Below, piece after piece: positions 36,460 through 52,020 of a DNA stretch of 52,020 bases. Where the stretch lies: positions 1 through 52,020 of IMG/VR virus record IMGVR_UViG_3300034375_010259; one strand, given 5' to 3'. The stretch comes from a virus. Its lineage: Duplodnaviria; Caudoviricetes. The notes under the pieces are model-generated. The model saw only the letters and a list, made by a program, of their open reading frames with translations. It had not been told where the DNA came from and searched no databases. The translations under genes and the position numbers were made by a program. Positions within the stretch are counted from its first letter, which is position 1, and each line of letters opens with the position of its first letter.

Positions 36460-36475
36460 CTAAACCTCTAATTAA

Positions 36476-36823: not shown

Positions 36824-36831
36824 ATTTACTC

Positions 36832-37020: not shown

Positions 37021-37021
37021 A

Positions 37022-37840: not shown

Positions 37841-39198
37841 TACTTTTTTCCTTTTGTTTTTTTCTCATGTATATGCAATCTCCACACCCTAACACCATCC
37901 TCCGTAGTATTTTTTACCGAGAAAACTTCAGGATATTTTTTCATCAATTCTAAAAACTTACCTCTACCGATTCTAAAGCTGTAGCCAAATTGCTCTTTAA
38001 CTTGATCAGCAGCCTCCCAAATCTCATAATTTTTACCACTATTAATCTCACAAAATCTAAATATGAACCAATCCTCCCATTCCTTTAAAGAGCTAGATCG
38101 GACTTCTTCAGTTCGTTTTGAAACAAAAACCTTTAACATTTCTTTTTCGTCTACATGATAATGCCATAAAAAAGAAGCCAAACTCTTTATATTCTCAGGA
38201 GCAAATAAGCTTTGAATCTCTTCCGGAGTAAAAACTGTAGTAAGCTTTTTATCAGTCAATTCAATAATACTAAATCGCCTATCATCAGCAGTAAGAGAAA
38301 TAGAATCCATGTTATTTGATGATATGTAAAAATTAGCATAATTCTTAATTTCCTTAGCATCTACACCTTTCTGCTCAATCTCTAAATAGTCATTAACCAC
38401 CAACTTTATCCGATCCTCTTCTTCTTTGTTTTTTATACTTATTTCATCACAATAAACCAATCTTTTGTTCGCTATCTGAGAATTAAAAGTCCCTTTAAAC
38501 ATTCTATCTCCGCCAGAGTAGAAATTAGAGGCTCCAAACAATTCTCTCATAATCCCACCTAGAACACCCTTTCCAATTCCTTGTTTGCCTATAGTAGCCA
38601 AGATACAATAATTACGACTTCTCAAGCCATTTGCCAGCCATTGAATTAGATAATTGTATGAAGTCTTATCCTTATTGACTAAATGCATGAAAAACCGACG
38701 GTACAAGTTTTGAAATTCTAACTCTTTTGGCACTTCCAGATTCCCTTCCGAAAAAAAACAATCCTGAAACCAGAAAGGCGGCTGGTACGTATTAAAACTA
38801 TAAGTATCGTCATCATTTTTTATTAACATCCCGTAATCATAAGGTCGATACTCATACTCGCACGTAATAATCTTATTTTTGATATTGCACCTACGATCAA
38901 AAAGCTCCACTAATCGAGATCTATGAATCTTAGAAACTTGTCGAGAAACCTTATCAAGAATAGAAACCGTATTATCCTCACCCAATTGATCACAAACCAA
39001 GTCGGATCTAACTAACTTCTGAATAAGCCCGTAATTCTTATAATCAGCTACGCAATCCTCAATAATGTCGGCAAGAACTTCCGAACTGACAGACTTATAC
39101 TGCGCTTCCAATCTTTTCTGAATTTGATTATGGTTATTTCCAAATCTAATCAAAGTTTCACATTCCGTCTTTATTTCTCTAATTTCCTTACTATCCAT
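37840..39198 (-). CDS. D5-like / SF3 primase-associated helicase (DUF5906-type NTPase)
   Basis: Walker A GKQGIGKG, Walker B VYCDE, IEQKGVD, ISSNN, DDRRF; ATG at 39198 after GGGAG. Confidence 0.85.
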   Translation of the reverse strand: MDSKEIREIKTECETLIRFGNNHNQIQKRLEAQYKSVSSEVLADIIEDCVADYKNYGLIQKLVRSDLVCDQLGEDNTVSILDKVSRQVSKIHRSRLVELFDRRCNIKNKIITCEYEYRPYDYGMLIKNDDDTYSFNTYQPPFWFQDCFFSEGNLEVPKELEFQNLYRRFFMHLVNKDKTSYNYLIQWLANGLRSRNYCILATIGKQGIGKGVLGGIMRELFGASNFYSGGDRMFKGTFNSQIANKRLVYCDEISIKNKEEEDRIKLVVNDYLEIEQKGVDAKEIKNYANFYISSNNMDSISLTADDRRFSIIELTDKKLTTVFTPEEIQSLFAPENIKSLASFLWHYHVDEKEMLKVFVSKRTEEVRSSSLKEWEDWFIFRFCEINSGKNYEIWEAADQVKEQFGYSFRIGRGKFLELMKKYPEVFSVKNTTEDGVRVWRLHIHEKKTKGKK

Positions 39199-40126
39199 TG
39201 ATTTCTCCCGCTCTGATCTTTTTATTATATCCATGATCAACACCGATACACAACTTATGCTCGGGATAACCTACACTAATCAACTTCGGAAAAACACGCT
39301 CCCATAGAACCTGTAAAAGGACTTCTTTACTTACTTTCGTATAATCTATACATTGGACCGTCAACTTAAAAATTTCTCGATACATGCCATCAGGACGTGC
39401 CCAATCGACATATCTGAGTCTATTTTTAAGAAACACAGGACAATGTTGCCAAAACTCTTCTACATCCTCAACCTGGACCTCTGCCTCAAACTTCTTAACA
39501 GGATTAAAAGAAATAGAAGGACATGAATCTAATATCAAATTAAACGCCTGAGCGGTCAACCGATCCCCCAAATAAACCAATTCCTGAATAACTCCATTTC
39601 TTTCAAATCCAGGAAATCTTGAAAGCCTTGAAGGATTCTGACAAGAGTAATCAACGAACTTCTCGCCTTTATCTCCATCTAGCAGCTCTGAAGCCTTTAA
39701 ATCGATTTTAGCAGCCAATCTACGCCACACATGCTTATAGTACTGAATACCGTCTAACGTGTGAACAGCGGCATTTAAAGGCTTCTCAAGGCTAACTATG
39801 GCATGATACGATTTACCGCCTGAATACACGATAGAAGTAAACGGAATGCCACATTCTTTAAAAATCCTTAATTGATCTTTTAAATCAATATTATCCATTT
39901 CAAATAAAAAATTCCTATAAGAGCAAACATTAATATCAGCTCGCGAAGGAAATCGACTATCTTTGTCCTGAACATAAGATTTGTACGGATCTAATGCATT
40001 TATGCAGAAAAACTCTGGAACGGCACTACCAATTTTCAATGCGTTACGAACCTTGGTCTGGTAAATACCCCCAAAAGTAGTGCAATTTCCCTGTACGAAC
40101 AAGGTACTCATAAACGTATTTTTCAT
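39191..40126 (-). CDS. AEP-superfamily primase (RepB'/prim-pol-like)
   Basis: NFLFEMD, VYSGGKSYHAIV, VD.SCQNPSRLSRFPG. Confidence 0.85.
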   Translation of the reverse strand: MKNTFMSTLFVQGNCTTFGGIYQTKVRNALKIGSAVPEFFCINALDPYKSYVQDKDSRFPSRADINVCSYRNFLFEMDNIDLKDQLRIFKECGIPFTSIVYSGGKSYHAIVSLEKPLNAAVHTLDGIQYYKHVWRRLAAKIDLKASELLDGDKGEKFVDYSCQNPSRLSRFPGFERNGVIQELVYLGDRLTAQAFNLILDSCPSISFNPVKKFEAEVQVEDVEEFWQHCPVFLKNRLRYVDWARPDGMYREIFKLTVQCIDYTKVSKEVLLQVLWERVFPKLISVGYPEHKLCIGVDHGYNKKIRAGEING

Positions 40127-40140
40127 AACTTACCTCCGAA

Positions 40141-40440
40141 CCTTTTGTTCAAAATTTTTCTGTACGCACTTAAATTCATGAAATCACTAAGGAGTGCAAC
40201 TCGTACAGATTTTCTCTCAGTTCCCCCACGCATATTTTATTATTCCCTACCTTATATGTTTTTTTTTATTAGTCTTTTTCAGTACTCTTTAAGTACTTTA
40301 CTAGTCTATACTAGTCTATATTATTTCTACAGTCAACTTAAGATTTCTCTGTACTTCTGTACTTATTAAGTTCTTCTTTAGTTTCAAGAACTTACACCTC
40401 AAGGGTGGGATATGATTCCTTGTACGTACAGGACCTTCTA
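40141..40440. other. candidate replication origin / control region
   Basis: ~300-bp non-coding AT-rich gap upstream of primase; hairpin at 40159-40209; two inverted IHF-like motifs; CTAGTCTATA x2. Confidence 0.4.
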
Positions 40441-40719
40441 TCATGATTTATCATGGGTCTCTTTTTCTTTTCTAATTCTATCAAAAAACTCTAATTCTTC
40501 CCTACTATGTCTTCGAGTTTTCGCTTTAAAATCCGTCCAAATGACATCTCCGTCACCTTTATGGAAATTCCTTAAATAATACAAATAATTTCTAATTGCC
40601 TTCAACTTCTTCTCGTCTTCAGAAGTCTTAACAAGTCCTTCACCAGCCTTCACTCGCCTACCTCCATTTCTAATTGCCCAAAAAAGCCTTAAAATCCAAT
40701 CCCATAAAACCGACAACAT
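40441..40719 (-). CDS. hypothetical protein
   Basis: GGAAGG RBS; ORF in the early arm. Confidence 0.6.
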   Translation of the reverse strand: MLSVLWDWILRLFWAIRNGGRRVKAGEGLVKTSEDEKKLKAIRNYLYYLRNFHKGDGDVIWTDFKAKTRRHSREELEFFDRIRKEKETHDKS

Positions 40720-40741
40720 TAAAACCTTCCAAGTCTATAAA

Positions 40742-40960
40742 TTATTCATCATCATCTTCACCTAATAACGATTTCGAAGCCTTATGAAGCTCATAAGCAT
40801 TCTTAAAAAGTCTAAGCATATATAAGTCATACTCAGCAATAACCTCAAAGTAATCCGACTCTTCAAAAGTCCAAACTATAAAATTAGTGTCCAAGCTAAA
40901 ACCGATCCCTACATTTTCCTCGTCTTCAAAACCTTTCATGAAATCATTATACAACGCCAT
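40742..40960 (-). CDS. hypothetical acidic protein
   Basis: AAGGAG RBS. Confidence 0.7.
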   Translation of the reverse strand: MALYNDFMKGFEDEENVGIGFSLDTNFIVWTFEESDYFEVIAEYDLYMLRLFKNAYELHKASKSLLGEDDDE

Positions 40961-40971
40961 AAAAGCTCCTT

Positions 40972-41301
40972 TTAAGCGTTAATCTGATATAAAAAGTCCA
41001 AAAAGTCTTCCGAAGCTTCCAAGTACTTTTCCGCCTGCCGAAGCCTTTTAATATTCCCTATCATAATCCAATCATCCCGTAAAATGCTCCCAAAGTACAA
41101 AGCACCAATCTCAACATGAACCTTACCGTTTCGAAAAAAGGCTACACCGTCCACGCTATACTGCGCTCCATCAACTTCAAACTGATAATCGTTTATATCC
41201 ATTTCCTTATTTTCCAATAAAGAATATTCCCCCGAATCATCATGATTCATGTACTCATAAAACAACTCTTCATAATCAGATCTTACTTTAATTTTTCTCA
41301 T
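40972..41301 (-). CDS. hypothetical acidic protein
   Basis: AAGGAG RBS. Confidence 0.7.
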   Translation of the reverse strand: MRKIKVRSDYEELFYEYMNHDDSGEYSLLENKEMDINDYQFEVDGAQYSVDGVAFFRNGKVHVEIGALYFGSILRDDWIMIGNIKRLRQAEKYLEASEDFLDFLYQINA

Positions 41302-41310
41302 TTTAAACTC

Positions 41311-41385
41311 CTTAAGCCTTCAAAAGTCTTCTCAAGCCTACCATACTTAAGCCTTCAAAAGCCTTCTCCAGTCTACCACACTTAA
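41311..41385. repeat. 35-bp intergenic tandem duplication
   Basis: CTTAAGCCTTCAAAAG(T/C)CTTCTC(A/C)AG(C/T)CTACCA(T/C)A x2 plus CTTAA. Confidence 0.85.
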
Positions 41386-41666
41386 CCCCTTTTGACAACC
41401 CTTTTTTTGCCTTTTCCAATATTTTTCCCAGCCTTATAATGCTCCAAAAGCCTTAAAAAGTCCTCAAAAGCCTCCCACTTAACGTAATAACCACAATGAT
41501 CACATGTCTCTTTATCCACACTTTCGGCGCCTACCAACGGCTTCCTCGACCTATAATGCGGTTCCATACCTTTATGGCATGAACAAGTAGCTATATACTC
41601 TACACCTCTAAAGATCTTCCTAGTTCCACTAAGTTCCTTAAAATTATTCATCTCCATTCCTTCCAA
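41382..41666 (-). CDS. hypothetical protein with Cys/His (zinc-ribbon-like) motif
   Basis: CSCH..CDHCG; exact start uncertain. Confidence 0.6.
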   Translation of the reverse strand: MEGMEMNNFKELSGTRKIFRGVEYIATCSCHKGMEPHYRSRKPLVGAESVDKETCDHCGYYVKWEAFEDFLRLLEHYKAGKNIGKGKKRVVKRG

Positions 41667-41677
41667 GCCTTAAACTA

Positions 41678-42061
41678 TTAATGTTTGATTTTTTTCCCAG
41701 CATCCATGATTTTCTGCACTTCCAGATCTTCCAAATCTTCAAAATCTTTTCCACTCGAACCTTTAAGACTTAAAGATTTAGAACTAGAACCCTTATAATC
41801 TTCAACAGTCTTCAAAAGCACTTCAAAAGCCTTTTCCGCAAATTTACTAGCTGTAGAAGTCTTCAAAACTCCCATCTTTAAAGCTGTAGCTATGATACTC
41901 ACGGCTACAGAGATTAATATCCCAGGAACTTCCTTTAGCATCAATGCCGCATTTTCACTCGACTCTAGTAAGTCATCAGTTTCGGATGCATAAGATTCCT
42001 CCATTAAATCAACAATGGCATCTCTATACTCTTTTCCTTTTTCGGATAGTTTAATTCTCAT
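41678..42061 (-). CDS. hypothetical protein
   Basis: ATG at 42061 after AAAGGAG; the ORF-track TTG start lies in a repeat. Confidence 0.65.
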   Translation of the reverse strand: MRIKLSEKGKEYRDAIVDLMEESYASETDDLLESSENAALMLKEVPGILISVAVSIIATALKMGVLKTSTASKFAEKAFEVLLKTVEDYKGSSSKSLSLKGSSGKDFEDLEDLEVQKIMDAGKKIKH

Positions 42062-42094
42062 CTTTTCTCCTTTATGGTTTAGTGGTCTTTTGTA

Positions 42095-42175
42095 GACCGT
42101 CAATAGCTTTTTAGCTTTTTAGCTTTTTAGCTTTTTAGCTTTTTAGCTTTTAGCTTTTTAATTTTTAGCTTTAAA
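42095..42175. repeat. GACCGTCAATAGCTTT element plus (AGCTTTTT)n array
   Basis: Exact 16-mer followed by about 8 octamer units. Confidence 0.9.
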
Positions 42176-42176
42176 A

Positions 42177-42356
42177 CTAATCATCATCATGATCATGCAA
42201 ATACCTATCAATACAAGTTTTCACATCCTCCACCGTGTAATTGGTTTCCTCGCAATCCTCCACCATGAGTTCATACCTATACTCATCAGCAGCCTTCATC
42301 ATTTTCACGCCTACAGAAGTCGCTAAAAGCACACTTAAAACCGCCACCAAAATCAT
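42177..42356 (-). CDS. small membrane-anchored / secreted protein
   Basis: GGGAG RBS; hydrophobic N-terminus; two Cys. Confidence 0.6.
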   Translation of the reverse strand: MILVAVLSVLLATSVGVKMMKAADEYRYELMVEDCEETNYTVEDVKTCIDRYLHDHDDD

Positions 42357-42357
42357 G

Positions 42358-42555
42358 TTATCTCCCTTTGTATTTCTTAATCGCATTTAAAATTACCTCA
42401 TAAATATTAACGGTCAATAAAACCCCCATCATGATTAAAAACCCAAAAACACTCGCAACAAACTCCACTACAAACGCCATCAACCTAAAAACACCTTCCG
42501 CCAATTCCTTTAAAGTTTCTACAAATTCCTTCAAAGTCTCTAAAAAATCCTTCAT
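42358..42555 (-). CDS. small membrane protein
   Basis: AAGGAGG RBS; long hydrophobic segment. Confidence 0.65.
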   Translation of the reverse strand: MKDFLETLKEFVETLKELAEGVFRLMAFVVEFVASVFGFLIMMGVLLTVNIYEVILNAIKKYKGR

Positions 42556-42587
42556 AGTTCCTCCTTTTAAACTTATTAACCTTTAAA

Positions 42588-43178
42588 TCAATTAACTATA
42601 TAATACATCAATTCCATGTATTCATCAAGCAATTTCCCATTATACTCATCAATAAACTTAATCGGATCTACCTGAACCCCATCAACAATCACCTCAAAAT
42701 GTAAATGCGGTCCCGTCGTTTTCCCCGTATTTCCTGACAAACCAACCGGCTCGTAATCCAATAGTATGTCTCCTTTCTCGACTTTAAAAGAACTCAAATG
42801 CGCATACAAAGTCTTAAACCCATCATGCCGCACAATCACATAATTTCCAAACCCAGACTCAAACCCTACAAACTCCACCACGCCCTTTTGAATCGAAATC
42901 ACTTCCTCCCCTTCCCGAACTGCAAAATCAACTCCTTTATGCATCCTAGATCCATTCCCCAAATCGCGAAGCCCATACGGAGAAGACATGACTCCTCTAA
43001 CAGGCATTCGAAGAAACTTCCTAGGAACTTCAATCCTTTTAGGCTTCCTTTGCAAATCATGCTTTTCAATTAACAACTGCTTCTTACGCTCTTTCAAAGC
43101 CTGCAAAGTACTTACATCAGTCGTACTACAGCCTACAAACAATAAAAGGCTTCCAAAGACTACAAAACTATTTCCCAC
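42588..43178 (-). CDS. M23-family peptidoglycan endopeptidase, predicted lipoprotein
   Basis: SSPYGLR, MHKGVDF, YAHLS, GNTGKTTGPHLHFEV; lipobox FVGC after a GTG start at 43178 with AGGAG RBS. Confidence 0.9.
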   Translation of the reverse strand: MGNSFVVFGSLLLFVGCSTTDVSTLQALKERKKQLLIEKHDLQRKPKRIEVPRKFLRMPVRGVMSSPYGLRDLGNGSRMHKGVDFAVREGEEVISIQKGVVEFVGFESGFGNYVIVRHDGFKTLYAHLSSFKVEKGDILLDYEPVGLSGNTGKTTGPHLHFEVIVDGVQVDPIKFIDEYNGKLLDEYMELMYYIVN

Positions 43179-43188
43179 TTTTAAACTC

Positions 43189-43671
43189 CTATTTCCTAAC
43201 ACCGTACCAAGTAGGCTCACGCACATCATGATCCCATCTTACGGCTAAATATAACTGATAAGCTTTAGTAACATCCTTTATATGCTTAAAATCAACTCCA
43301 ACAGACTTATTAGCGGCACAATTAGCAAAAGGCGTCAAACTCCCTTCGGGAATCATAAACTCATGATCCTTAAAAACATCCAACAACCTACTAGACTTGT
43401 GAACCTTACCATACCTGAAAGTATACTCATCACTTAAAGCCTTAAAATGCCTTAAAAGCCATTGAAAGTTTTCCCTAGTTTCCCTAGCCCACACACTACT
43501 TGGGTGATTCTTATGAGTCATTTTGTAGATGCCATCACCCTCATAACCATGAACTCTTAAAGCCGTACTAAGCATTTGAGCAGTTTCTAAAACCATTTTC
43601 AGCGCTCTCTTGTCATCTAAAAATTTAGCACATTCTATTGGACATTCGGATGTAAAAAATATATTCATCAC
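43189..43671 (-). CDS. pyrimidine-dimer DNA glycosylase (endonuclease V-like)
   Basis: MNIFF..P..CA..LDDK...KMVLETAQMLST, THKNHPSSVWAR, EYTFRYGKVHKS. Confidence 0.85.
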   Translation of the reverse strand: MMNIFFTSECPIECAKFLDDKRALKMVLETAQMLSTALRVHGYEGDGIYKMTHKNHPSSVWARETRENFQWLLRHFKALSDEYTFRYGKVHKSSRLLDVFKDHEFMIPEGSLTPFANCAANKSVGVDFKHIKDVTKAYQLYLAVRWDHDVREPTWYGVRK

Positions 43672-43694
43672 ATGACTCCTTTTGGGTTTATTAA

Positions 43695-43723
43695 ATTGTA
43701 CCGTACTTTTAGGGGATTTGCAA
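43695..43723 (-). promoter_or_regulatory. sigma70-type promoter
   Basis: TTGCAA-17bp-TACAAT on the - strand, with an A-rich UP element. Confidence 0.7.
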
Positions 43724-43767
43724 GACTTTTTTTGATTTTTTAGATTTATAGATTTATAGACTTAACC

Positions 43768-43817
43768 GACCGTCAATAGCTTTCAGCTAATAAATTCCAA
43801 CTAATAAATTCCAGCTA
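43768..43817. repeat. GACCGTCAATAGCTTT element with adjacent short tandem repeats
   Basis: Exact 16-mer at 43768; CTAATAAATTCCA x2 follows; TAGATTTA repeats precede. Confidence 0.85.
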
Positions 43818-43895
43818 TTCTCCAGCTTCAAATATGTCCAGCAGGATCATTATTACAGCCAATGCAACTAATAGCATTAATAATAAGTTAATCAT
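43815..43895 (-). CDS. 26-aa single-TM microprotein
   Basis: GAGGG RBS; MINLLLMLLVALAVIMILLDIFEAGE. Confidence 0.45.
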   Translation of the reverse strand: MINLLLMLLVALAVIMILLDIFEAGE

Positions 43896-43905
43896 CAGTA
43901 TTCCC

Positions 43906-44193
43906 TCAGTCTTGCGTCTTTATTAATTCATTATATAACATACAATCTAATGAGTAGATAATCATTTCTTCATTATTAAAATAAATTGCACTTCCTAAAA
44001 CGTAGCCTTTATCGTTATTAATATCAGCGCCTTTTTCTATTAAATATTTAACAATATCAAAATGTCCATTAAAGGCTGCAATTCCTAAAGCCCAATCATG
44101 GTTAGCATTAGCTCCATTTTTAACTGCTAATTTTACCATTTCGAGTTGATTAATTTCAATGCCGAGTGTTAGTATTTTTTGCCAATCAATCAT
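43906..44193 (-). CDS. ankyrin-repeat protein
   Basis: LEMVKLAVKNGANAN, ALGIAAFNGHFDIVKYLIEKGADIN. Confidence 0.9.
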   Translation of the reverse strand: MIDWQKILTLGIEINQLEMVKLAVKNGANANHDWALGIAAFNGHFDIVKYLIEKGADINNDKGYVLGSAIYFNNEEMIIYSLDCMLYNELIKTQD

Positions 44194-44395
44194 TGATGCC
44201 GCCTTTTTGTTGCTTCAAAGTTCTCCTAACAATAACCATAGAAGCTGGCACAATTAACTCCCCACCATCAGGCAATCTAAGCAACATTAAATTATTAACA
44301 CTATCATAATACTTCATCTCTTTCAAAGGTGCCCACATCGTTCTTCCCAAGGCTGGTATTATATAGTATTGTTCATATTCCGGTTTATTTTTCAT
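44186..44395 (-). CDS. hypothetical protein
   Basis: TAAGGAG RBS. Confidence 0.65.
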   Translation of the reverse strand: MKNKPEYEQYYIIPALGRTMWAPLKEMKYYDSVNNLMLLRLPDGGELIVPASMVIVRRTLKQQKGGIND

Positions 44396-44422
44396 TATTA
44401 ACTCCTTAAAATTATATCACTA

Positions 44423-44659
44423 TTAATTATTAATCTCTTTATAATACTCATCAAGCCAATCCAGTTCGGTAATGTGCAATTGTCTCTCTAATAACTTTTC
44501 GTACAATTTATATGTGTTGCTTAATTTCTCCCTGTATTCCTCAGTGTATAGATCCTGCTGGGTGGATACCATTACGTAGTCGAGTAGTAAGTCCTTGACT
44601 TCATTAAGTAATTTTACTTTTTCGTTGTTGTTCATTAGTAATACTTCCTTTTTATTCAT
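44423..44659 (-). CDS. hypothetical protein
   Basis: GAGGT RBS right after a promoter. Confidence 0.65.
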   Translation of the reverse strand: MNKKEVLLMNNNEKVKLLNEVKDLLLDYVMVSTQQDLYTEEYREKLSNTYKLYEKLLERQLHITELDWLDEYYKEINN

Positions 44660-44688
44660 TATTGTTACCTCAATGTTGCGTCAATGAT

Positions 44689-44717
44689 AGAGTATCATGC
44701 AAAAATGTTGATGTCAA
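44689..44717 (-). promoter_or_regulatory. sigma70-type promoter
   Basis: TTGACA-17bp-TACTCT with TG extension. Confidence 0.75.
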
Positions 44718-44761
44718 GTATTTTTTGAGTTTTTTAGGAATTTATGCCAATTTTATTGAAT

Positions 44762-45061
44762 TTAAACAGATTTAAGTGAACACCATTTCAAATGATGATT
44801 TGGAAACGAAGTATGCTTGGCTGCGCAATCGCAATTTTTCGGTATTGGTGGCGGCTCATTGACGACATCCTTATTTATAAACATCCAATAATAACTAGAG
44901 TCGTATGTCATCTCTCTAAAAGCGTATAAATCGCTTAAAATAGTGACCATCTTCCCGTCAACATGAATTACCTTACCTTTATCCATATTACTTGCGCCGG
45001 TATATATTTCTATTTCACATCCAATCAGGGATTTATTTACGGTATGTATAAATTGGTTCAT
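44762..45061 (-). CDS. hypothetical protein: SH3/KOW-like N-domain plus CxC..H..WC tail
   Basis: IGCEIEIY..KGKVI; CDCAAKHTSFPNHHLKWC. Confidence 0.65.
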   Translation of the reverse strand: MNQFIHTVNKSLIGCEIEIYTGASNMDKGKVIHVDGKMVTILSDLYAFREMTYDSSYYWMFINKDVVNEPPPIPKNCDCAAKHTSFPNHHLKWCSLKSV

Positions 45062-45524
45062 CAACAATTCTCCTTAGTTTTGCGTCTTTGAGTAATTTTA
45101 CGATTTCGGTATGTTTCATTACGAGAAGCCCATTTAATGCTTGATCATTCTTAGCATGAATATTAGCTCCATGTTCTAATAACAGTTTTACGATTTCAGT
45201 ATGTCCATAATCAGAAGCCAATCTTAATGCTTCATCATTCCAAGCATGAACATTAGCTTCTTTTTCCAATAACAGTTTTACAGTTTTAGTATGACCATTT
45301 TTAGAAGCTCGTCTTAATGCTTGATCATTCTCAGCATGAACGTCAGCACCATAGTCTAATAACAGTTTTACGATTTCAGTACGTCCATTACGAGAAGCCC
45401 ATCTTAATACATAATCATTCCCAGCATGAACGTCAGCACCATGTTCTAATAACAATTTTACTATTTCAATGTGACCAAAATAAGAAGCCCATGTTAATGC
45501 TTGATTTAATTGGTTTTGTGTCAT
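45033..45524 (-). CDS. ankyrin-repeat protein (about five 31-aa repeats)
   Basis: ALxWASxNGHxEIVKLLLEHGADVHAxND repeats; near-identical 93-bp DNA units. Confidence 0.95.
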   Translation of the reverse strand: MTQNQLNQALTWASYFGHIEIVKLLLEHGADVHAGNDYVLRWASRNGRTEIVKLLLDYGADVHAENDQALRRASKNGHTKTVKLLLEKEANVHAWNDEALRLASDYGHTEIVKLLLEHGANIHAKNDQALNGLLVMKHTEIVKLLKDAKLRRIVDEPIYTYRK

Positions 45525-45604
45525 CAACAATTCTCCTCAATGTTGCGTCTTCTTTTCCGGGCAAAATTATTACGTTCTAGGTACTCTATAAAATCTTTTT
45601 TCAT
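45524..45604 (-). CDS. 26-aa leader ORF translationally coupled to the ankyrin gene
   Basis: MKKDFIEYLERNNFARKRRRNIEENC ending in a TGATG overlap. Confidence 0.35.
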   Translation of the reverse strand: MKKDFIEYLERNNFARKRRRNIEENC

Positions 45605-45676
45605 TATTTTTGACCTTCTCAGTTCCTTATCTATCAGTATAGCAGATATGGGTTGTCAACAGTACGTTAATCATTT

Positions 45677-46693
45677 TTATTTCCTTAAAGTTTTGACCAT
45701 TTCTTCTGCAATTCTTTCAATAACTGGAACAGCTACGGAATTTCCAAATTGCTTATAAGCTTGTGTATCTGATACAGGTATTATAAAACTTTCAGGAAAT
45801 CCTTGTAATCTAGCGCATTCTCTGGGCGTTAATTTCCTAGGTCTTTTATTAATATCTGATTGATCTATTAAAATTTCGCTACCATCTTTTCCATACCTAG
45901 CACTAATAGTATTCGTGTACTCAGAATCTTTATTGAATAAAGAATATCCAAACCCATTGCCCTTCTGTTTATGACTCTCTTTTCTTCTTTGATGACCATT
46001 CCATAGCTTTTCAGAGAGAGTGTATTTATCATCCACATTTTGCTCTAAAATATTTCCAACTTTTGTAGGGGTTTTACAAGGCTCAGGAAAGTTAAAATTA
46101 TCATTAAAATTGAAATTTAAAGGAAATTGACTCTTATCAAATCCAATAATATAAATTCTTTCCCTATTTTGTGGTACTCCGAAGTCAGCAGCTCTTAGTA
46201 CTTTAAATTCAACATGATAATTTAACATTGTGAGAATTTCAAGGATGGTATTTAAAGTCTTTCCTTTATTGTGACCTTTTAATTGTTTCACATTTTCTAG
46301 TAAAAATGCCTTTGGTCTTTTATGTTTTATAATGTCTTGGATATAAAAAAATAGTGTTCCTCTAGTATCTTCAAATCCTTTTTTTAATCCTGCTTGAGAA
46401 AATGGCTGACACGGAAATCCTGCCAGTAAAATGTCGTGGTTAGGTATTTCCTCCATAGATATCTTTGTTATGTCTCCATGAGGCATTTTTCCATAATTAG
46501 CCTTATAAGTCTCTTGAGCAAATTTATCCCATTCAGATGTAAATACACATAATCCTTTATGTTTTTCAAAGCCTAATCTCATTCCACCTATACCAGCAAA
46601 AAGATCAATAAATGAATAATTATTGTCAATGTTAGCATTAGCACCTTTTTCAGAGGATCGTTTTAATGCTTTATTTAATTCTTTTTGTGTCAT
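45677..46693 (-). CDS. dcm: DNA (cytosine-5)-methyltransferase, SsoII/NlaX/Dcm-like (predicted CCNGG or CCWGG)
   Basis: FIDLFAGIGG, AGFPCQPFS, LLENV, PQNRERIY, YTNTISARYGKDGSEILI, QFGNSV. Confidence 0.95.
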   Translation of the reverse strand: MTQKELNKALKRSSEKGANANIDNNYSFIDLFAGIGGMRLGFEKHKGLCVFTSEWDKFAQETYKANYGKMPHGDITKISMEEIPNHDILLAGFPCQPFSQAGLKKGFEDTRGTLFFYIQDIIKHKRPKAFLLENVKQLKGHNKGKTLNTILEILTMLNYHVEFKVLRAADFGVPQNRERIYIIGFDKSQFPLNFNFNDNFNFPEPCKTPTKVGNILEQNVDDKYTLSEKLWNGHQRRKESHKQKGNGFGYSLFNKDSEYTNTISARYGKDGSEILIDQSDINKRPRKLTPRECARLQGFPESFIIPVSDTQAYKQFGNSVAVPVIERIAEEMVKTLRK

Positions 46694-46713
46694 CAACAAT
46701 TCTCCTCAGTGAT

Positions 46714-46977
46714 TCAATTATTAATACTAAAATCGATGTACTTTTGGCTCATTCGCCACCTTTTGCTGACACCGATCTTACCGTTAATTATATAATACCA
46801 ATCAATAAATGTCAATACCCCACCTTTCGAGGCGGCAAAATAGCAGTTTGGATGGTCGTCAAAAGGTCCGGTACCGCGTTTAAAGTACTTATAATAAGTA
46901 ATAGACTCGCCCTTAGCTCGTTTCTCTTGAAAGTAAAACGGTTTATCCGATTCTATGCATTCCTGTAAACTCGCCAC
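46714..46977 (-). CDS. hypothetical protein
   Basis: GTG start after GGAG; 87 aa. Confidence 0.55.
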   Translation of the reverse strand: MASLQECIESDKPFYFQEKRAKGESITYYKYFKRGTGPFDDHPNCYFAASKGGVLTFIDWYYIINGKIGVSKRWRMSQKYIDFSINN

Positions 46978-46979
46978 TA

Positions 46980-47219
46980 CTAAATCTCCGTATCCCCTGC
47001 ATGAGTGTTGTAGAAGTCTTCGATCTTATTCCGTTTATCAATGCAATGGGAAGCCAAAGTAGAATTTAAATTCGCGGCAAAATAAATAGACATGATATGA
47101 TACATCTCCCCAATGGGTAAATTATTCATTGACGCAAATTCAGCAATCGAATGATCTATACCTTTTAAGTCTTTCTTGCCTTTTTCTACGTGTTCAATTA
47201 AGTATTTAGTTACATCCAT
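46980..47219 (-). CDS. hypothetical protein
   Basis: TAAGGA RBS. Confidence 0.65.
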   Translation of the reverse strand: MDVTKYLIEHVEKGKKDLKGIDHSIAEFASMNNLPIGEMYHIMSIYFAANLNSTLASHCIDKRNKIEDFYNTHAGDTEI

Positions 47220-47251
47220 AATAGTTCCTTAGTGTTGTTTTAAATCTTTCA

Positions 47252-47467
47252 TTACAAATCCTTATCAGTTTCTTCAACCATACTCTTAAAATCATCAAAC
47301 AAGTCATCTACGATCTGATCATACGCATAAGACTCGCCATTTATCGAACAATAATCAACGCTATCCAAGACTGCATAACTTAAAACATCCGCCATCCCTT
47401 TTTTAATCTCTATTAGGTCTTCAGAAGCTAATAAATCTTTTAAAATCTTCAAAGTCTCTGGTTTCAT
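47252..47467 (-). CDS. hypothetical acidic protein
   Basis: GGGAGGT RBS after a promoter. Confidence 0.7.
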   Translation of the reverse strand: MKPETLKILKDLLASEDLIEIKKGMADVLSYAVLDSVDYCSINGESYAYDQIVDDLFDDFKSMVEETDKDL

Positions 47468-47497
47468 TTTTACCTCCCTTAAAGTTTCTTATACTTT

Positions 47498-47526
47498 ATA
47501 GTACAGGAAATCGTTTTAAAATGCAA
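47498..47526 (-). promoter_or_regulatory. sigma70-type promoter
   Basis: TTGCAT-17bp-TACTAT. Confidence 0.65.
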
Positions 47527-47603
47527 TCTTTTTGATAAAAAAAGTCTAAAAAATCCGCAAGTAGCTAACCCACCGAAATCACATGACTCGCGGAGCCTTC
47601 AAA

Positions 47604-47822
47604 CTATTCCTCCTTAGAAGTCTTCGTGCCATAAAAAAACACCGGACTGCTACCGTCCTCATATTCCTCAACTGCACTCGGATAATGTATCAAAACCCAT
47701 TGATGCGTCAACGCTAAAATCTCCCCCATCTACAACCCATGATCGTGAGCCATTTCCATAAGCACATTTTCATGATCCAATAAAACATCTCCCATTTTTC
47801 GAACTTTTAAGCTTTTACTCAT
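47604..47822 (-). pseudogene. 72-codon gene interrupted by an in-frame amber (TAG) at codon 31
   Basis: MSKSLKVRKMGDVLLDHENVLMEMAHDHGL*MGEILALTHQWVLIHYPSAVEEYEDGSSPVFFYGTKTSKEE; AAGGAG RBS. Confidence 0.6.
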
Positions 47823-48438
47823 TTGAACTCTCCTTTTTAGTTATAGCTCTATCAAAGTCTATCATATCCTTCAAAACATTATTCTTATACCTATCATCCT
47901 TCTCCGGATGCGTAAACTGATATTCAGCTAGCATAGCCAAATTACACAAAGCGTGCCACAAATGCGGCTTCCCCGACTCCGAATCCAGATCTTCCCCACC
48001 GTTAAATTTATACAAATGCCTTAAAGCACAATTAATAACCTTCGACCAGTCCATGCCCTTTCTCCAATTCTGGTCCGGATATTTACCACCATGCTTTTCG
48101 CTGTTCGCCATCAGTACGGAAGCGATCGCATATATTGCGGCTTCAGGGCATTGCGTCAGTTCAATTTTTCCGTCATTGAAGCGCAATCCCTCAGTGTTTC
48201 CAATATTGCCAATATTGCTGTCAATGTTGCTATCAATGTTGGATTTTTGTTGTGGTTGTTGATGGAACAATTCAATGTCTTGATTTTCTAAAATTCTGCC
48301 ATCCAAAGTAAATCGACTATGTCCAGTAACATCAAACCTAACTTTTATAGGATATTTTTCAAAGAAATTTATTTCAACAACCTTTCCTTTTTGATCTCTA
48401 AATCTAACCAAGTCGCCAGCCTTAAATTCTCTACTCAT
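47815..48438 (-). CDS. dATP/dGTP diphosphohydrolase-domain (DUF5664-like) protein with N-terminal SH3/KOW-like domain
   Basis: GLRFNDGK, KY..NWRKG, ALRHL, EDLDSESGKPHLWHALCNL. Confidence 0.85.
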   Translation of the reverse strand: MSREFKAGDLVRFRDQKGKVVEINFFEKYPIKVRFDVTGHSRFTLDGRILENQDIELFHQQPQQKSNIDSNIDSNIGNIGNTEGLRFNDGKIELTQCPEAAIYAIASVLMANSEKHGGKYPDQNWRKGMDWSKVINCALRHLYKFNGGEDLDSESGKPHLWHALCNLAMLAEYQFTHPEKDDRYKNNVLKDMIDFDRAITKKESSNE

Positions 48439-48463
48439 CTAAAACTCCTTATAAACTTAAAAA

Positions 48464-48715
48464 CTAATCAATACTTTCCTGCACTAATCTTTTCTTTAAA
48501 AGCAAAAAATTCCTATGCTTTTCAAACTGTCTTTTGATCCATGGTGTCATGTTATGTTTAGAATTTATGGATCTTTTCAACCATTCAAGCATTTTACGGT
48601 CCATTTCAGCCAAAGAAAGTTCTCCATTAAGCCTTAAACGGACTAACTTAGCCCAATAAGTCTCATACCGTTCTTCCCAATACTTTAAAGCTTCCGCATC
48701 CTTAAAAGTCTTCAA
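48464..48715 (-). CDS. hypothetical protein
   Basis: GGGGAGG RBS; TTGA overlap with the upstream gene. Confidence 0.65.
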   Translation of the reverse strand: MKTFKDAEALKYWEERYETYWAKLVRLRLNGELSLAEMDRKMLEWLKRSINSKHNMTPWIKRQFEKHRNFLLLKKRLVQESID

Positions 48716-49032
48716 AAGTCCTCCCCCGTTTTCAAATCCTTAGTCTTCAAATCTTTAATCTTCAAATCATTAAGCCTTTTAAACCTATTAACGGTCATCA
48801 AAGACTTCCCATTCCCATCACTCGGCAAATAACAATAAGCTCTATATTCTTGAAAGCCTGTCTTAACTAACCTAGCCAAACAATACTTTTCACCATATAG
48901 ATTTTTACAACCTTTAGAAGCCGTCAATAGGTTTTCTGTATCCGTATCATTCCAAGGCAAACTCGACTTATTAACTCGAACAGCCTCCGGACATACAGAC
49001 ATGATTAATAGTGCAGTAATCAGAAAATTCAC
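48712..49032 (-). CDS. secreted Cys-containing hypothetical protein
   Basis: Hydrophobic N-terminus; 4 Cys; GTG start after AAGGA. Confidence 0.6.
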   Translation of the reverse strand: MNFLITALLIMSVCPEAVRVNKSSLPWNDTDTENLLTASKGCKNLYGEKYCLARLVKTGFQEYRAYCYLPSDGNGKSLMTVNRFKRLNDLKIKDLKTKDLKTGEDF

Positions 49033-49043
49033 TTATAGTCCTT

Positions 49044-49595
49044 TTAAGGCTTGTTCGGGTTTTGTTGCCCATTAGCGTTTCCATTACCGTTGCCAGGGCT
49101 TTGTTGACCGTCATTGCCTTCACTGCCGTCAGTAGCTCCACCGCCTTCAGTACCGTCAGTAGCTTCATTGCCATTAGACTGTGAGTCTAAAAAATCCGTT
49201 AAATTATCAATACAATTCTGCTGATCCGCTTCCTCCGTGTACTGATCCTCGCAAAAACTTACAACGCCTTCCAAGTTAAGGGAAACTTCCGAGTCAAAAA
49301 AGCCTAACGCAGCCATAAAGCAATCATTACTCTCTTCCGTACCTTCACCAAACCGTCGATCGCATGTATCAGATACTTTATCGAAATCCATGACAAACTC
49401 TACCGGATCTGCATTGACCTGAATATCTTCAAATTCTACTTTGTCTATAGTAAGCCGACTTTCGCCTTGATTGGCTACGGTAATCTTTTCCGGAGTTCCG
49501 GAGATCTTGTGTTTAATACCACATGACGAGAATCCTAAAGCGGCTACGCCAATAAGCATGATTTTCATTTGTAATTTTTTAGTTTTTAAGTTCAT
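49044..49595 (-). CDS. lipoprotein with Cys pairs and Gly/Asn/Asp low-complexity tail
   Basis: Lipobox FSSC; two C-x10/11-C pairs; ATDG(T/S)EG repeats. Confidence 0.75.
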   Translation of the reverse strand: MNLKTKKLQMKIMLIGVAALGFSSCGIKHKISGTPEKITVANQGESRLTIDKVEFEDIQVNADPVEFVMDFDKVSDTCDRRFGEGTEESNDCFMAALGFFDSEVSLNLEGVVSFCEDQYTEEADQQNCIDNLTDFLDSQSNGNEATDGTEGGGATDGSEGNDGQQSPGNGNGNANGQQNPNKP

Positions 49596-49616
49596 TTTAA
49601 CTCCTTGGTAGGTTAT

Positions 49617-49645
49617 AGATTAGCAGATTTTTCAGGAGTTGTCAA
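49617..49645 (-). promoter_or_regulatory. sigma70-type promoter
   Basis: TTGACA-17bp-TAATCT with TG extension. Confidence 0.75.
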
Positions 49646-49653
49646 CTGTTTTT

Positions 49654-49796
49654 TAGGCTTTTTGGGCTTTTTTGGGCTTTTTTAGGCTTGGATGACCGTC
49701 AATAGCTTTTAAGCTTTAGTGACCGTCAATAGCTTTTAAGCTTTAGTGACCGTCAATAGCTTCTAAGCTTTATAGCTTTTAAACTTTACTTCTTCC
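49654..49796. repeat. three tandem 27-bp units (GACCGTCAATAGCTTTTAAGCTTTAGT) preceded by GGCTTTTT repeats
   Basis: Units start at 49694, 49721 and 49748. Confidence 0.95.
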
Positions 49797-50196
49797 TAGG
49801 ATTCTTATGAGTATAATCTTTCGATTCAAACATCGGACACCAATCATAATGCTGGCTCGGATTGGCTTTCGGATACAACTTCAAAACTCCACAAACGCAT
49901 TTAGACTTCAACGGCTTTGAATCTGGACTGTAGTCTCCAAAGTCTAATAGTCTTTCAAATTCATCCAGTAATTCGTCATCCCCCATGCGTTGGTAGACTT
50001 GATAACTCTGAAAAAGTATCCACATTGGAAGTCCGTTGTCAGGCTGTACTTGTATCGAAGCTCCCGATTTGTTTATAACTTTGCCTTGCATGACTTTCTG
50101 GACGCTATTAAAGATTTGAACATAATCCCCAATGCTTATTTTGTCCATGTCCAGGATAAACTTAAACTTTGATTGTACAGAACTATAATTATTCAT
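49786..50196 (-). CDS. hypothetical protein: SH3/KOW-like N-domain plus CxC..H..WC tail
   Basis: IGDYVQIF..QGKVI; CVCG..HYDWCP. Confidence 0.7.
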   Translation of the reverse strand: MNNYSSVQSKFKFILDMDKISIGDYVQIFNSVQKVMQGKVINKSGASIQVQPDNGLPMWILFQSYQVYQRMGDDELLDEFERLLDFGDYSPDSKPLKSKCVCGVLKLYPKANPSQHYDWCPMFESKDYTHKNPRKK

Positions 50197-50211
50197 TTAT
50201 GTCCTTTTTAG

Positions 50212-50317
50212 GCTTTAGTGACCGTCAATAGCTTTTAAGCTTTATAGCTTTTAAGCTTTATAGCTTTTAAGCTTTATAGCTTTTAAGCTTTATAGTTTTT
50301 AAACTTTACTTCTTTCC
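50212..50317. repeat. GACCGTCAATAGCTTT element plus four 16-bp units (GCTTTTAAGCTTTATA)
   Basis: Direct-repeat counterpart of 49740-49793. Confidence 0.95.
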
Positions 50318-50432
50318 AATTGGCGTTTTCATTAAACACAACGCTGGCTTAACAGGATATAAAATATCTCCCACAGTCATTTTGTTATCACAAACCACAT
50401 CATTAAAATACCCTTTACAAGTATTTAATATA

Positions 50433-50792
50433 TTACAACCCTACGTCTAATAAAACAAGATAAACTTTCTTACCATCATGATGCACTATCGAAGGAAACC
50501 CGTAAAGAGTTTGAAACTCCTTCCACTGCTTACCAGTCTTCGGAAGCTCTACTTGCTTTTCCAGGTCGTAATTATCTAACAACTCCTTTTCAAGTTCATC
50601 ACAAGCCGTATGCATTTCTCTACTTTTTTGATCCAACTCTTCTCTGGTTATCTCACCTTTTTTAAATCTTGTATATTCTTTCTGGTAATCATTACTAATA
50701 AGATCAAATCTTTCACGCCATTGCTCATTATAATCTTGATTATCAGCACCCTCTATAGGTCTTCCTGATTGTCTTTGTAAGGTTACTCTCAT
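50433..50792 (-). CDS. hypothetical protein
   Basis: AAGGAG RBS; ATGA overlap. Confidence 0.7.
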   Translation of the reverse strand: MRVTLQRQSGRPIEGADNQDYNEQWRERFDLISNDYQKEYTRFKKGEITREELDQKSREMHTACDELEKELLDNYDLEKQVELPKTGKQWKEFQTLYGFPSIVHHDGKKVYLVLLDVGL

Positions 50793-51055
50793 TTTAACTC
50801 CTTGGAAGTTTTTAATCGGTAGTAAATCATTACCGAAATGAATAAAATATTCGCCATGTAATTATATAGCAAGGGATTGATTCCAAAAACTTTTAAAGTA
50901 TAAACAAAAGCTAGAATCTCCCCTAAATACCATGGTACTAGCAAAGCCCACGGCACTGTACATTTTTTTGTTATGAAACATGATATAGTCTCTGGAAGTC
51001 CGCAAAAGGCTAGTAAAGCCGATCCAAGCCATCCAATAGTCTCAATTAGCTCCAT
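50789..51055 (-). CDS. PQ-loop / SemiSWEET-like 3-TM membrane protein
   Basis: IGWLGSALLAFCGLPE (PQ-loop position), three hydrophobic helices, PLLYNY..N; ATG at 51055. Confidence 0.7.
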   Translation of the reverse strand: MELIETIGWLGSALLAFCGLPETISCFITKKCTVPWALLVPWYLGEILAFVYTLKVFGINPLLYNYMANILFISVMIYYRLKTSKELK

Positions 51056-51224
51056 AAGGCGCTCCCATTTTTTTATACTCTTGAATATGCCTTTCCACTG
51101 ATTGCTCATTTTTCTTTATTAGTTCTGTAATGACCGTTCCTAGCTTTTTTCCTGGCAATAATAGGACTGTAGTGACCGTAAGTAGCAAAATACCCAAAAA
51201 CAGCTTATCATTTTTCTTTTTCAT
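51042..51224 (-). CDS. small membrane-anchored protein
   Basis: GGGAG RBS; basic N-terminus plus a TM segment. Confidence 0.55.
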   Translation of the reverse strand: MKKKNDKLFLGILLLTVTTVLLLPGKKLGTVITELIKKNEQSVERHIQEYKKMGAPYGAN

Positions 51225-51351
51225 AAGCGCTCCCAATAAGCTTCGCTAATAGACATGACCCTAGTAGCTTAAAAATTTAAAATCTAAATACCAAGTTCTT
51301 CTTCAAAAATAATCATTAAAACAAAAACCACAATAAGTATAATCTTTATCA

Positions 51352-51594
51352 CTATTTCTCCTTTGCGCTATTAAGCATTTCTTCAAAATAAACATCCCAA
51401 CACATCTCATCAAAAAACTCTTCATTAAACCAATCTACATCATCATGATGAAAATACTCTCCACAATACTTATCATACTTAAACTCATCCCACAACTCGT
51501 TTAATCTATCATCGTTTTCAAACTGCCAAGCTTCAAAGTCTTTTTCCAAAACTTCAAATTCTTCTTTTGTCAGTTTCTTTAAAATTGAGTTCAT
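51352..51594 (-). CDS. highly acidic first early protein (DNA-mimic candidate)
   Basis: AAGGAG RBS after a strong promoter; Asp/Glu- and aromatic-rich, 80 aa. Confidence 0.7.
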   Translation of the reverse strand: MNSILKKLTKEEFEVLEKDFEAWQFENDDRLNELWDEFKYDKYCGEYFHHDDVDWFNEEFFDEMCWDVYFEEMLNSAKEK

Positions 51595-51613
51595 TAAAAT
51601 TCTCCTTTTTAAA

Positions 51614-51642
51614 ATCTTAACATTTTATAAATTACTTGTCAA
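51614..51642 (-). promoter_or_regulatory. sigma70-type early promoter
   Basis: TTGACA-17bp-TAAGAT with TG extension and an AT-rich UP element. Confidence 0.8.
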
Positions 51643-51717
51643 TTATTTTTAAAAAAGTTTTCCAGGAATTTTAGCCTTTTTTATTTGTTGGAGGGAAGAT
51701 TCAATAATTTTTGTTTA

Positions 51718-51789
51718 TAAACAACTTTTATTAACTAAACAACTTTTATTGACTAAACAACTTTTATTGACTAAACAGAAATTATTGAC
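51718..51789. repeat. four tandem 18-bp units (TAAACAACTTTTATTGAC)
   Basis: Units start at 51718, 51736, 51754 and 51772 (last degenerate). Confidence 0.9.
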
Positions 51790-51886
51790 GAAAGTCGAAA
51801 AAAATTGCTTATAATGATAACCATCAATATTTTTTATTTATGACCCAATAATTTTTGTCTTTTTTTTATCATAACTAATTAAAATA

Positions 51887-51916
51887 ATAGTAACATACTA
51901 TATAAATTGTTGTCAA
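51887..51916 (-). promoter_or_regulatory. sigma70-type promoter
   Basis: TTGACA-18bp-TACTAT. Confidence 0.55.
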
Positions 51917-52020
51917 CTAGAATCTGTTTATCCAATAAATTCAGGGACTTATAACTTTTTTTTCTTTACTGTTTTTTTTCTTGACCGATTTTGATTAGAT
52001 TTAATTAAGAATTCAGCATT

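Follow-up and report, generated by a model that had tools for sequence, protein, structure and literature searches.

Stoperators, known from cluster A mycobacteriophages, are asymmetric sites in short intergenic spaces with an orientation that follows transcription, and a reversed site loses its function (PMC9283540). They stop elongation in one orientation only and are found at more than 20 sites genome-wide (McGinnis et al., 2022, PMC9283540). A second kind of dispersed element is the promoter-early stem-loop cassette (PeSL) of T4-type phages (Arbiol et al., 2010, PMC2839356; Comeau et al., 2014, PMC4122927). Here we analyse an element which shares traits with both, a 16-base box repeated between early genes of an uncultured aquatic phage (Duplodnaviria; Caudoviricetes). 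The stretch of DNA, called the window below, is the whole IMG/VR virus record IMGVR_UViG_3300034375_010259, which has 52,020 bases and is estimated to be 98% complete. The box is found at four loci, at each of them preceded by short A/T-rich repeats, and box and repeats together are called a module. We tentatively favour the view that the box may be a boundary element which is read by a protein on the DNA.

The box and its position

The box is GACCGTCAATAGCTTT on the plus strand and reads AAAGCTATTGACGGTC on the minus strand, which is the transcribed strand in the early arm. This arm runs from 52 to 33 kb, about 19 kb, and contains many small orphan genes. Exact copies are located at 42095, 43768, 49694, 49721 and 50220, and a copy with one mismatch at 49748. 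When up to two mismatches are allowed the genome has seven matches against 0.07 expected, and none of 100 shuffles reached seven; the seventh match has two mismatches and lies on the opposite strand at 48781, within an open reading frame (ORF). The six others are all the intergenic copies in the genome, since the window is the whole record. All six lie between minus-strand ORFs and are sense to transcription, and they form four loci from 42.1 to 50.2 kb. An initial annotation of this DNA had listed these six copies as intergenic, uniform in orientation and confined to the early arm, and it had read the order of the parts on the transcribed strand as stop codon, array, box and then promoter or ribosome binding site (RBS); both statements hold. 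At every locus the minus strand has a stop codon, A/T-rich repeats, the box and then either a promoter plus an RBS or an RBS alone.

At 42.1 kb the box (42095..42110, minus strand) precedes the ATG at 42061 by 33 nt, and a small GGTCT/AGACC hairpin follows it. Formally this copy overlaps with an ORF called from a TTG start (41678-42103); the ATG at 42061 is the start that has a Shine-Dalgarno (SD) sequence. The array of about 8.9 units of the 8-mer AAAAGCTA (42104..42172, minus strand, 77% A+T) begins 4 nt past the stop codon of a gene for a 69-amino-acid (aa) membrane protein. At 43.7 kb irregular AGCT-bearing repeats without an 8-bp register (43785..43828, minus strand, 2.2 copies of a 14-bp unit) come after the stop codon of a 26-aa mini-ORF. 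The box (43768..43783, minus strand) follows 99 nt ahead of the start and 44 nt upstream of the -35 of a sigma-70-type promoter, TTGCAA-17-TACAAT (43695..43723, minus strand), and A-tract repeats with 80% A+T (43724-43767, minus strand) lie upstream of this promoter.

The locus at 49.6 kb has three tandem boxes at 27-bp spacing (49694..49763, minus strand), those at 49694 and 49721 being exact and that at 49748 carrying the mismatch. Two to three extra AGCT units (49764..49788, minus strand) extend from them to the stop codon (49786-49788) of a gene for a 136-aa protein. On the other side A-tracts phased at about 10 bp (49646-49693, minus strand) precede a promoter-like TTGACA-17-TAATCT with TGn (49617-49645, minus strand), which was read by eye and is below threshold in the promoter scan; it is upstream of a lipoprotein gene, and the gap from box to start is 98 nt. 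At 50.2 kb the box (50220..50235, minus strand) stands 23 nt ahead of the ATG with which the 136-aa gene starts and adjoins an array of 5.1 16-bp units (50228..50308, minus strand, 78% A+T), each built of the two diverged 8-mers AAAGCTTA and AAAGCTAT. About 20 nt upstream of this array, stop codon included, are common to the 49.78-kb locus. Thus a promoter stands between box and start at 43.7 and 49.6 kb, and the RBS comes directly after the box at 42.1 and 50.2 kb.

When the four loci are aligned, the box shows no variation in any of its 16 columns, and the 4 nt which follow differ. The box as a whole is asymmetric and non-palindromic, and apart from it the loci at 42.1 and 43.8 kb have nothing in common. 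The alignment of the loci at 50.2 and 49.7 kb extends over about 120 nt, from the last codons and the stop codon of the preceding ORF to about 12 nt past the box, and judged from this alignment they are recent paralogues which flank the 136-aa gene as direct repeats.

Three more 13-mers within two mismatches of the box core (48784-48796, 49151-49163 and 51174-51186) are located inside ORFs; about 0.5 matches in total are expected at this threshold, and decay of former copies or chance could account for them. At each copy a mini-frame begins with the TTG of the box (42095-42103, 43768-43776, 49694-49763, 50220-50228), giving MTVTKA*, MTVIQA* or MTVG*, and the one at 42.1 kb is in frame with the downstream gene. 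These mini-frames are probably untranslated because no SD sequence stands ahead of them.

The arrays

Tandem Repeats Finder gives a period of 8 with 8.9 copies at 42104-42172, a period of 16 with 5.1 copies at 50228-50308 and a period of 27 with 3.0 copies at 49693-49772. The distances between successive AGCT are 8, 8, 8, 8, 8, 7 and 15 at 42.1 kb, 8 seven times at 50.2 kb, and 8, 19, 8, 19, 8 and 8 at 49.7 kb. They are irregular (7, 28, 11) at 43.8 kb, and the 8-bp register is thus found at three of the four loci. AGCT pairs exactly 8 bp apart are concentrated here, 16 of the 19 in the genome falling inside the three arrays. The three periods agree with the initial annotation, which had also stated that all these arrays keep AGCT repeated 8 bp apart; two of them do so throughout, and at 49.7 kb spacings of 8 and 19 alternate.

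One array unit makes up the first eight bases of the box. Two diverged 8-mers form the 16-bp unit, and the 27-bp unit consists of a pair of 8-mers together with the 11 bases which are left of the box and its tail. The composition of the units indicates that all three arrays descend from one 8-bp unit and are not three independent solutions, and the AGCT register which they share would therefore be inherited. The initial annotation had let the box seed AGCT arrays, and common descent accounts better for the pattern. AGCT as a special core of such arrays was also dropped: among 2.9 million viral contigs five AGCT at 8-bp spacing are found at 65 loci, against 75 for the control core TGCA. The contigs of the 65 AGCT-array loci encode no relatives of the proteins of this phage.

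Relation to promoters and terminators

The box contains TTGACG, which resembles a -35 sequence. A promoter scan found no -10 at 16-18 bp from it at any of the six copies, reading by eye agrees, and the same observation in the initial annotation is confirmed. A complete sigma-70 promoter is thereby ruled out. What the module does contain is a copy of the upstream half of the phage's own sigma-70 promoters: the last array unit supplies the A-tract, TTGACG follows, and GGTC then takes the place of a spacer and a -10. In the early arm the promoters read by eye mostly have an A-tract 3-4 nt ahead of TTGACA or TTGCAA. The scan gave canonical sigma-70 promoters in the arm at 46815-46787 (TTGACA-17-TATAAT) and at 51916, 51642, 43723 and 40336; further promoters, and strong SD sequences, are visible by eye.

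For the question of which polymerase is involved, 72 of the 76 called ORFs were compared with PHROGs, 54 of them also with Pfam and 31 with NCBIfam; the ORFs left out of the PHROGs scan are 725-910, 32700-32927, 36832-37020 and 40145-40369, two of which are in the NCBIfam set. No RNA polymerase and no sigma factor was found in this material, and therefore it must be the host polymerase that is managed. For the same reason the box does not qualify as the promoter of a single-subunit phage RNA polymerase, none being encoded by the ORFs compared with PHROGs and Pfam.

An intrinsic terminator is ruled out since the modules have no hairpin with a U-run. Such signals are scarce in the arm as a whole, with one intergenic hairpin-plus-U candidate in 19 kb (47.55 kb), and two strong ones in the late arm. 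The early candidate (47543-47600, -14.1 kcal/mol and then TTTTTT) directly precedes a promoter-like TTGCAT-17-TACTAT. A conserved RNA structure was also rejected: the sense strand folds weakly (z from -0.17 to -2.74), no better than shuffles at two of the four loci (z -1.26 and -0.17) and modestly better at the others (-2.28 and -2.74), no structure is common to the four, and Rfam has no match in the early arm. Readings as IHF-like, Rho-utilisation, integron attC-like, replication-origin or packaging sites were considered by eye and dropped, as none had testable support.

Strain variation

DNA nearly identical to that of the window is present in runs from 14 studies, which cover freshwater, estuary, marine and lagoon metagenomes. 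Assembled contigs of four runs were placed on the region, the most diverged strain being X15. Contigs which enter the arrays from both sides support the view that the modules also exist in samples besides the likely source. In all four runs the contigs enter the arrays but end inside them (42133/42144, 49722/49733, 50241/50266) and no listed piece spans a whole array, so the copy numbers given above are those of the assembled record, which the contigs did not confirm.

One X15 contig with a depth of about 4 shows a different 50.2-kb locus, in which the stop codon of a 119-aa gene is followed by two 27-bp tandem box units and then by the 136-aa gene. The contig lacks the 16-bp array and a 236-nt stretch bearing a mini-ORF, joins 49772 to 50432 and 50239 to 49740, and has 42 fewer bases over 49675-50239. 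The same strain has insertions of 7 nt in the 8-bp array at 42123 and of 35 nt in the A-tract repeats at 43746. The modules are thus hot spots of length change and rearrangement, and at one locus, as seen in this single X15 contig, the array is dispensable and the box is kept.

Occurrence elsewhere

In IMG/VR the exact 15-mer has 87 single-copy matches, about the order expected by chance according to our own estimate, and no contig has two. The box together with the next AGCT (19 fixed bases) gave two near-identical, unrelated single matches in metagenome contigs and one single match, in a planctomycete metagenome-assembled genome, among 185,579 species genomes. In the literature searched the box is undescribed, its 10-mers matching only primers and unrelated sequences. 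Since neither these three collections with their lack of multi-copy matches nor the literature has it, the element family itself seems to be undescribed, as the initial annotation had supposed. The absence of close strains from the sequence collections carries little weight.

No cultured phage is close. A megablast of 10 kb against cultured phages gave no match, searches with the polymerase and capsid proteins gave distant matches only (37% or less), and the 136-aa gene flanked by modules has no relative in IMG/VR. The sole relative found, by way of the primase (56% identity), is a 55-kb genome, G001. Its late arm and replication genes are syntenic with those of this phage at amino-acid identities of 30-80%; past the primase the early arm is non-homologous, with three weak protein matches from 40 to 52 kb. 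G001 has an array of its own, about 13 units of the 9-bp AAGCTTCCC, which comes after a stop codon and adjoins the counterpart of the first 265 bases of the window. Four AAGCTT at 9-bp spacing are found at 12 viral loci, G001 among them, and AAGCTT-cored arrays may, on the sequences of two genomes, be a habit of the lineage. An 18-bp AGCT-bearing repeat of G001 was considered as kin of the arrays and dropped, because it codes for a hexapeptide repeat.

Positions 1-265 of the window are C-rich A-tract DNA. Their positional counterpart is G001 25390-25690, which comes after a 162-aa gene and the AAGCTTCCC array, both absent here. The two genomes are circularly permuted relative to each other (the ends of this record; G001 24600-25700), and this record probably broke at a repeat and is short by under 1 kb.

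A possible boundary element

The interpretation which we favour is that the box acts, like a stoperator, as a protein-read boundary element on DNA which affects the traffic of RNA polymerase. Four boundary modules would lie in the variable early arm, each made of a slippage-prone A/T-rich array and, at its 3' end, the invariant asymmetric box ATTGACGGTC. The reader could be an early phage protein which has evolved to recognise a -35-like sequence, or region 4 of the host polymerase together with the alpha subunits. Acting at the 3' end of the upstream unit of transcription, it would block read-through, or insulate against it, in an orientation-dependent manner, and the A/T-rich array would be the stretch where the halted polymerase sits. 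As a side effect, for which the strains provide part of the evidence, the repeated modules would serve as points of homologous recombination which reshuffle gene cassettes.

A protein-read DNA site at a unit boundary is suggested because the box is a sharp, asymmetric block locked in its orientation, because it comes after stop codons, because it is designed as half a promoter and because ordinary terminators are so scarce in the arm. These features, as well as the variability among strains, are read directly from the DNA; the binding of a protein, and an effect which is blocking rather than activating, are what we infer from them. At two of the four loci the box is upstream of a sigma-70 promoter, and the transcripts of this promoter therefore do not contain the box; from this the box would seem to act where the upstream unit ends or on the DNA. 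That the diverged strain X15 retains the box at 50.2 kb, as read from one contig, also counts in favour. The operator-like site which the initial annotation had included among its options thus fits the anatomy best, but a protein to bind it was not found.

Several observations weigh against this interpretation. No helix-turn-helix (HTH), ribbon-helix-helix (RHH), repressor or sigma match was obtained for 33 early-arm ORFs in PHROGs and Pfam or for 26 in NCBIfam, and ESM Atlas look-ups of small early proteins gave nothing usable, which leaves no candidate for the binding protein. Neither integrase nor repressor was found among the ORFs scanned, and a silencer of the stoperator type would be without an obvious lysogenic role. 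Six copies at four loci within 8 kb compare poorly with the more than 20 sites genome-wide in phage L5, and with four of the six copies being recent paralogues they amount to about three independent observations. The true promoters of the phage include none with the full box. Spacings of 27 and 8 bp are not whole helical turns, which argues against cooperativity by looping. Finally G001, the only relative found, lacks it at up to two mismatches and uses in its place a complete sigma-70 early promoter, repeated five times at 22235-24776 (L097-L098) with a conserved leader which ends in GGATTAACATG; a start context, GGAGATTAACATG, is repeated at six genes in G001. It is because no binding protein and no lysogeny genes were found and because the copies are few and partly paralogous that we regard the favoured interpretation as possible and hold it tentatively.

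A wider form of the same idea, which we consider more doubtful, is that the early arm is a long, nearly terminator-free operon partitioned by orientation-locked protein roadblocks derived from half promoters. The arrays would then be zones in which halted host polymerase is set free or the binding protein spreads, with a copy number tuned by slippage, and the modules would be points of cassette exchange.

Alternative explanations

The modules might instead be PeSL-like cassettes without the -10 and the stem-loop, which they have lost or never had, with homologous recombination, by which early-gene cassettes are inserted, deleted and swapped, as the main consequence and gene conversion keeping the box identical. 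The anatomy fits what Arbiol et al. (PMC2839356) describe: a stop codon, an A/T-rich stretch, a -35, an SD sequence and start, in a hyperplastic region beside ORFans. Here the stop codon does lie in an A/T-rich stretch (the arrays have 77-78% A+T) upstream of a -35, and the neighbouring genes have no family. The early arm is just the part which is non-homologous to G001, the 50.2-kb and 49.7-kb loci with their common 120 nt flank the 136-aa gene as direct repeats, and X15 is rearranged at 50.2 kb with the junction inside the repeats. The initial annotation had mentioned recombination handles for gene cassettes, and this rearrangement bounded by repeats gives the suggestion some support, although it is read from one contig at depth of about 4.

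Other short repeats in the arm bound a methylase cassette. The C5 cytosine methylase gene (45677-46699), which aligns over its full length with M.HhaI (E 2e-72), sits between 60-nt direct repeats (45483-45542 and 46652-46711) owing to which its leader and first five codons are identical to those of the ankyrin gene 45033-45530. This cassette is absent from X9, X10 and X15, three of the four runs compared, and the X15 junction is inside the 60-nt repeats. Against a PeSL origin stands the absence of both defining parts, a -10 at 16-18 bp and a stable stem-loop with a U-run, and gene conversion leaves unexplained why a sharp 16-nt block is shared at 42.1 and 43.8 kb, where the flanks differ. On balance we find this explanation doubtful.

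Alternatively the signal could be in the RNA, processing or loading sites being another option of the initial annotation, with A-rich unstructured AAGCU(U) repeats and the box forming a processing, stability or ribosome-standby site which uncouples the cistrons. Should early transcription run through the modules, they would be copied in sense, ordinary terminators being nearly absent; the box is 23-33 nt ahead of a start with a good SD sequence at two of the four loci; and the self-complementary AGCU lets the arrays fold into long imperfect hairpins. The folding results given above, no better than shuffles at two loci, modest at the rest, with no structure common to the four and no Rfam match, speak against it. 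So do the two loci at which a promoter of the downstream gene comes after the box, and the X15 locus at which the array is dispensable. We find a role in the RNA unlikely.

Comparably improbable in our judgement is the proposal that the repeats have no function and stem from local duplication and replication slippage of a short palindrome-containing unit which is tolerated between genes. Short-period arrays are indeed widespread in viral contigs whatever their core, as the counts for AGCT and TGCA show, array length and type vary among strains, and G001 manages without the box. Such a process does not account for a 16-nt identity which is exact where the flanks have fully diverged, for a strictly uniform orientation and position relative to the genes, or for the retention in the box of the layout of phage promoters.

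T4 middle promoters, which work by sigma appropriation, are the scheme resembled by a further hypothesis, in which the box would serve a middle-type promoter as its activator box. A phage factor would stand in for recognition of the -35, and TAWAAA 12 nt after TTGACG would act as the -10. Five of the six copies have TAAAAA, TAAAAG or TATAAA exactly 9 nt past the box, the upstream A-tracts are like those at promoters, the tandem copies could be tandem promoters, and two copies are directly ahead of genes. However, four of those five copies are paralogous and none of the hexamers ends in T. Transcription is predicted to start 0-7 nt ahead of the ATG, which would cut off a well-placed SD sequence at both loci without a promoter, and the PHROGs, Pfam and NCBIfam scans found no MotA-, AsiA- or sigma-like protein. 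This makes a middle-type promoter quite unlikely.

That the arrays, which pack 5 to 8 AGCT (0 to 4 of them being AAGCTT) into 45-80 bp, are decoys titrating a host restriction or defence protein which recognises AGCT or AAGCTT, as the initial annotation had also offered, can hardly be correct: AGCT is not depleted in the genome (297 observed against 309 expected, ratio 0.96) and AAGCTT occurs 39 times, whereas a phage under such pressure would shun the site, as this one shuns GGCC (0 against 81 expected in the whole window), and the phage's methylase is M.HhaI-like over its full length. The 6-bp palindromes which are absent include CAGCTG, GAGCTC, AACGTT, GCATGC, GTCGAC and CTCGAG, with CYCGRG and GWGCWC found once each, and this pattern of restriction-site avoidance could help to identify the host.

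Other features of the genome

The late arm is encoded on the plus strand from 1 to 33 kb and has the genes for prohead protease, large terminase, portal, major capsid, tail and fibre. The replication genes of the early arm code for a family A DNA polymerase, a primase, a D5-type helicase and a PD-(D/E)XK exonuclease. An M23 peptidase, two ankyrin-repeat proteins, a MazG-like pyrophosphohydrolase domain and the C5 cytosine methylase are encoded there as well. Between two of the box modules, at 42177-43671, there is a block which resembles a lysis cassette inside the early arm, with a T4 endonuclease V-like gene, the M23 peptidase with a lipoprotein-type signal and two small membrane proteins.

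Possibly related boxes were seen by eye on the plus strand at 51729..51815 with 18-bp spacing, TTATTAAC at 51729 and TTATTGAC at 51746, 51764 and 51782. The last of them, TATTGACG, is by eye the -35 of a rightward TTGACG-19-TATAAT. They stem from an 18-bp repeat (3.3 copies, 51700-51830) located between the leftward early promoters at 51916 and 51642, and in this divergent control region they are also aligned with the direction of transcription. The stretch 51700-51830 may hold the switch for the late arm.

The sense strand of the early arm (33000-52020) is strongly G-rich and C-poor, with a plus-strand GC skew of -0.22 to -0.42 across most of 34-50 kb and of -0.18 in one 2-kb bin (44-46 kb). 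In the late arm it is A that is enriched on the sense strand, with an AT skew of up to 0.39, and the cumulative skew drops monotonically along the record. Repeats are found in coding DNA too, namely about four copies of 150 bp in a fibre-like gene (22131-22746) and 4.6 copies of 90 bp in the ankyrin repeats (45096-45505), and the number of ankyrin repeats varies among strains. In G001 a G+C-rich gap of 430 nt between early genes (14710-15139, L097) looks structured and could be a non-coding RNA.

Comparison with known systems

The comparison with stoperators is one of description rather than of sequence relation. Like a stoperator, the box is short, asymmetric, intergenic, sense-oriented in six cases out of six and related to a promoter-region site. 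It differs in having six copies in one 8-kb stretch instead of more than 20 over both arms, and in the tandem arrays attached to it. Nor does this phage have, as far as the PHROGs, Pfam and NCBIfam scans go, a repressor gene, an HTH match or any sign of lysogeny.

With the PeSLs the modules share the dispersed intergenic repeats, the hyperplastic early region beside ORFans, the order of the parts and, as far as the one X15 contig shows, the indels between close strains. They lack a -10 at a workable spacing and the terminator stem-loop, they contain a true tandem array, and the conserved block is the 16-mer and not a whole promoter. The repeated complete promoters of G001 are closer to the PeSL in this respect.

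Arrays of operators are bound by RHH repressors, as with the met-boxes of MetJ, which have an 8-bp period, and the heptads of omega, and these overlap the promoter which they regulate. The head-to-tail boxes of 7-8 bp with a small palindromic core found here are similar and could bind a row of dimers cooperatively. The arrays of this phage, however, follow stop codons and are upstream of the box, not over a promoter; one of them is irregular and one X15 locus has none, and Pfam and NCBIfam gave no RHH match.

Arrays of 8 or 9 bp are present in non-coding DNA of many unrelated viral contigs, and only here are they coupled to a dispersed, invariant 16-mer. If the box is truly a polar block or insulator, control of elongation of the stoperator type extends beyond temperate mycobacteriophages to an abundant and widespread aquatic lineage, and the box would be a compact orientation-dependent stop of transcription which needs no RNA hairpin. 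Even without a regulatory role, half-sites and slippage arrays mark the gain and loss of early-gene cassettes in natural phage populations. The element is of a known kind, that of regulatory or boundary repeats dispersed over the plastic early regions of phage genomes, and it differs from those described in being half a promoter joined to slippage arrays.

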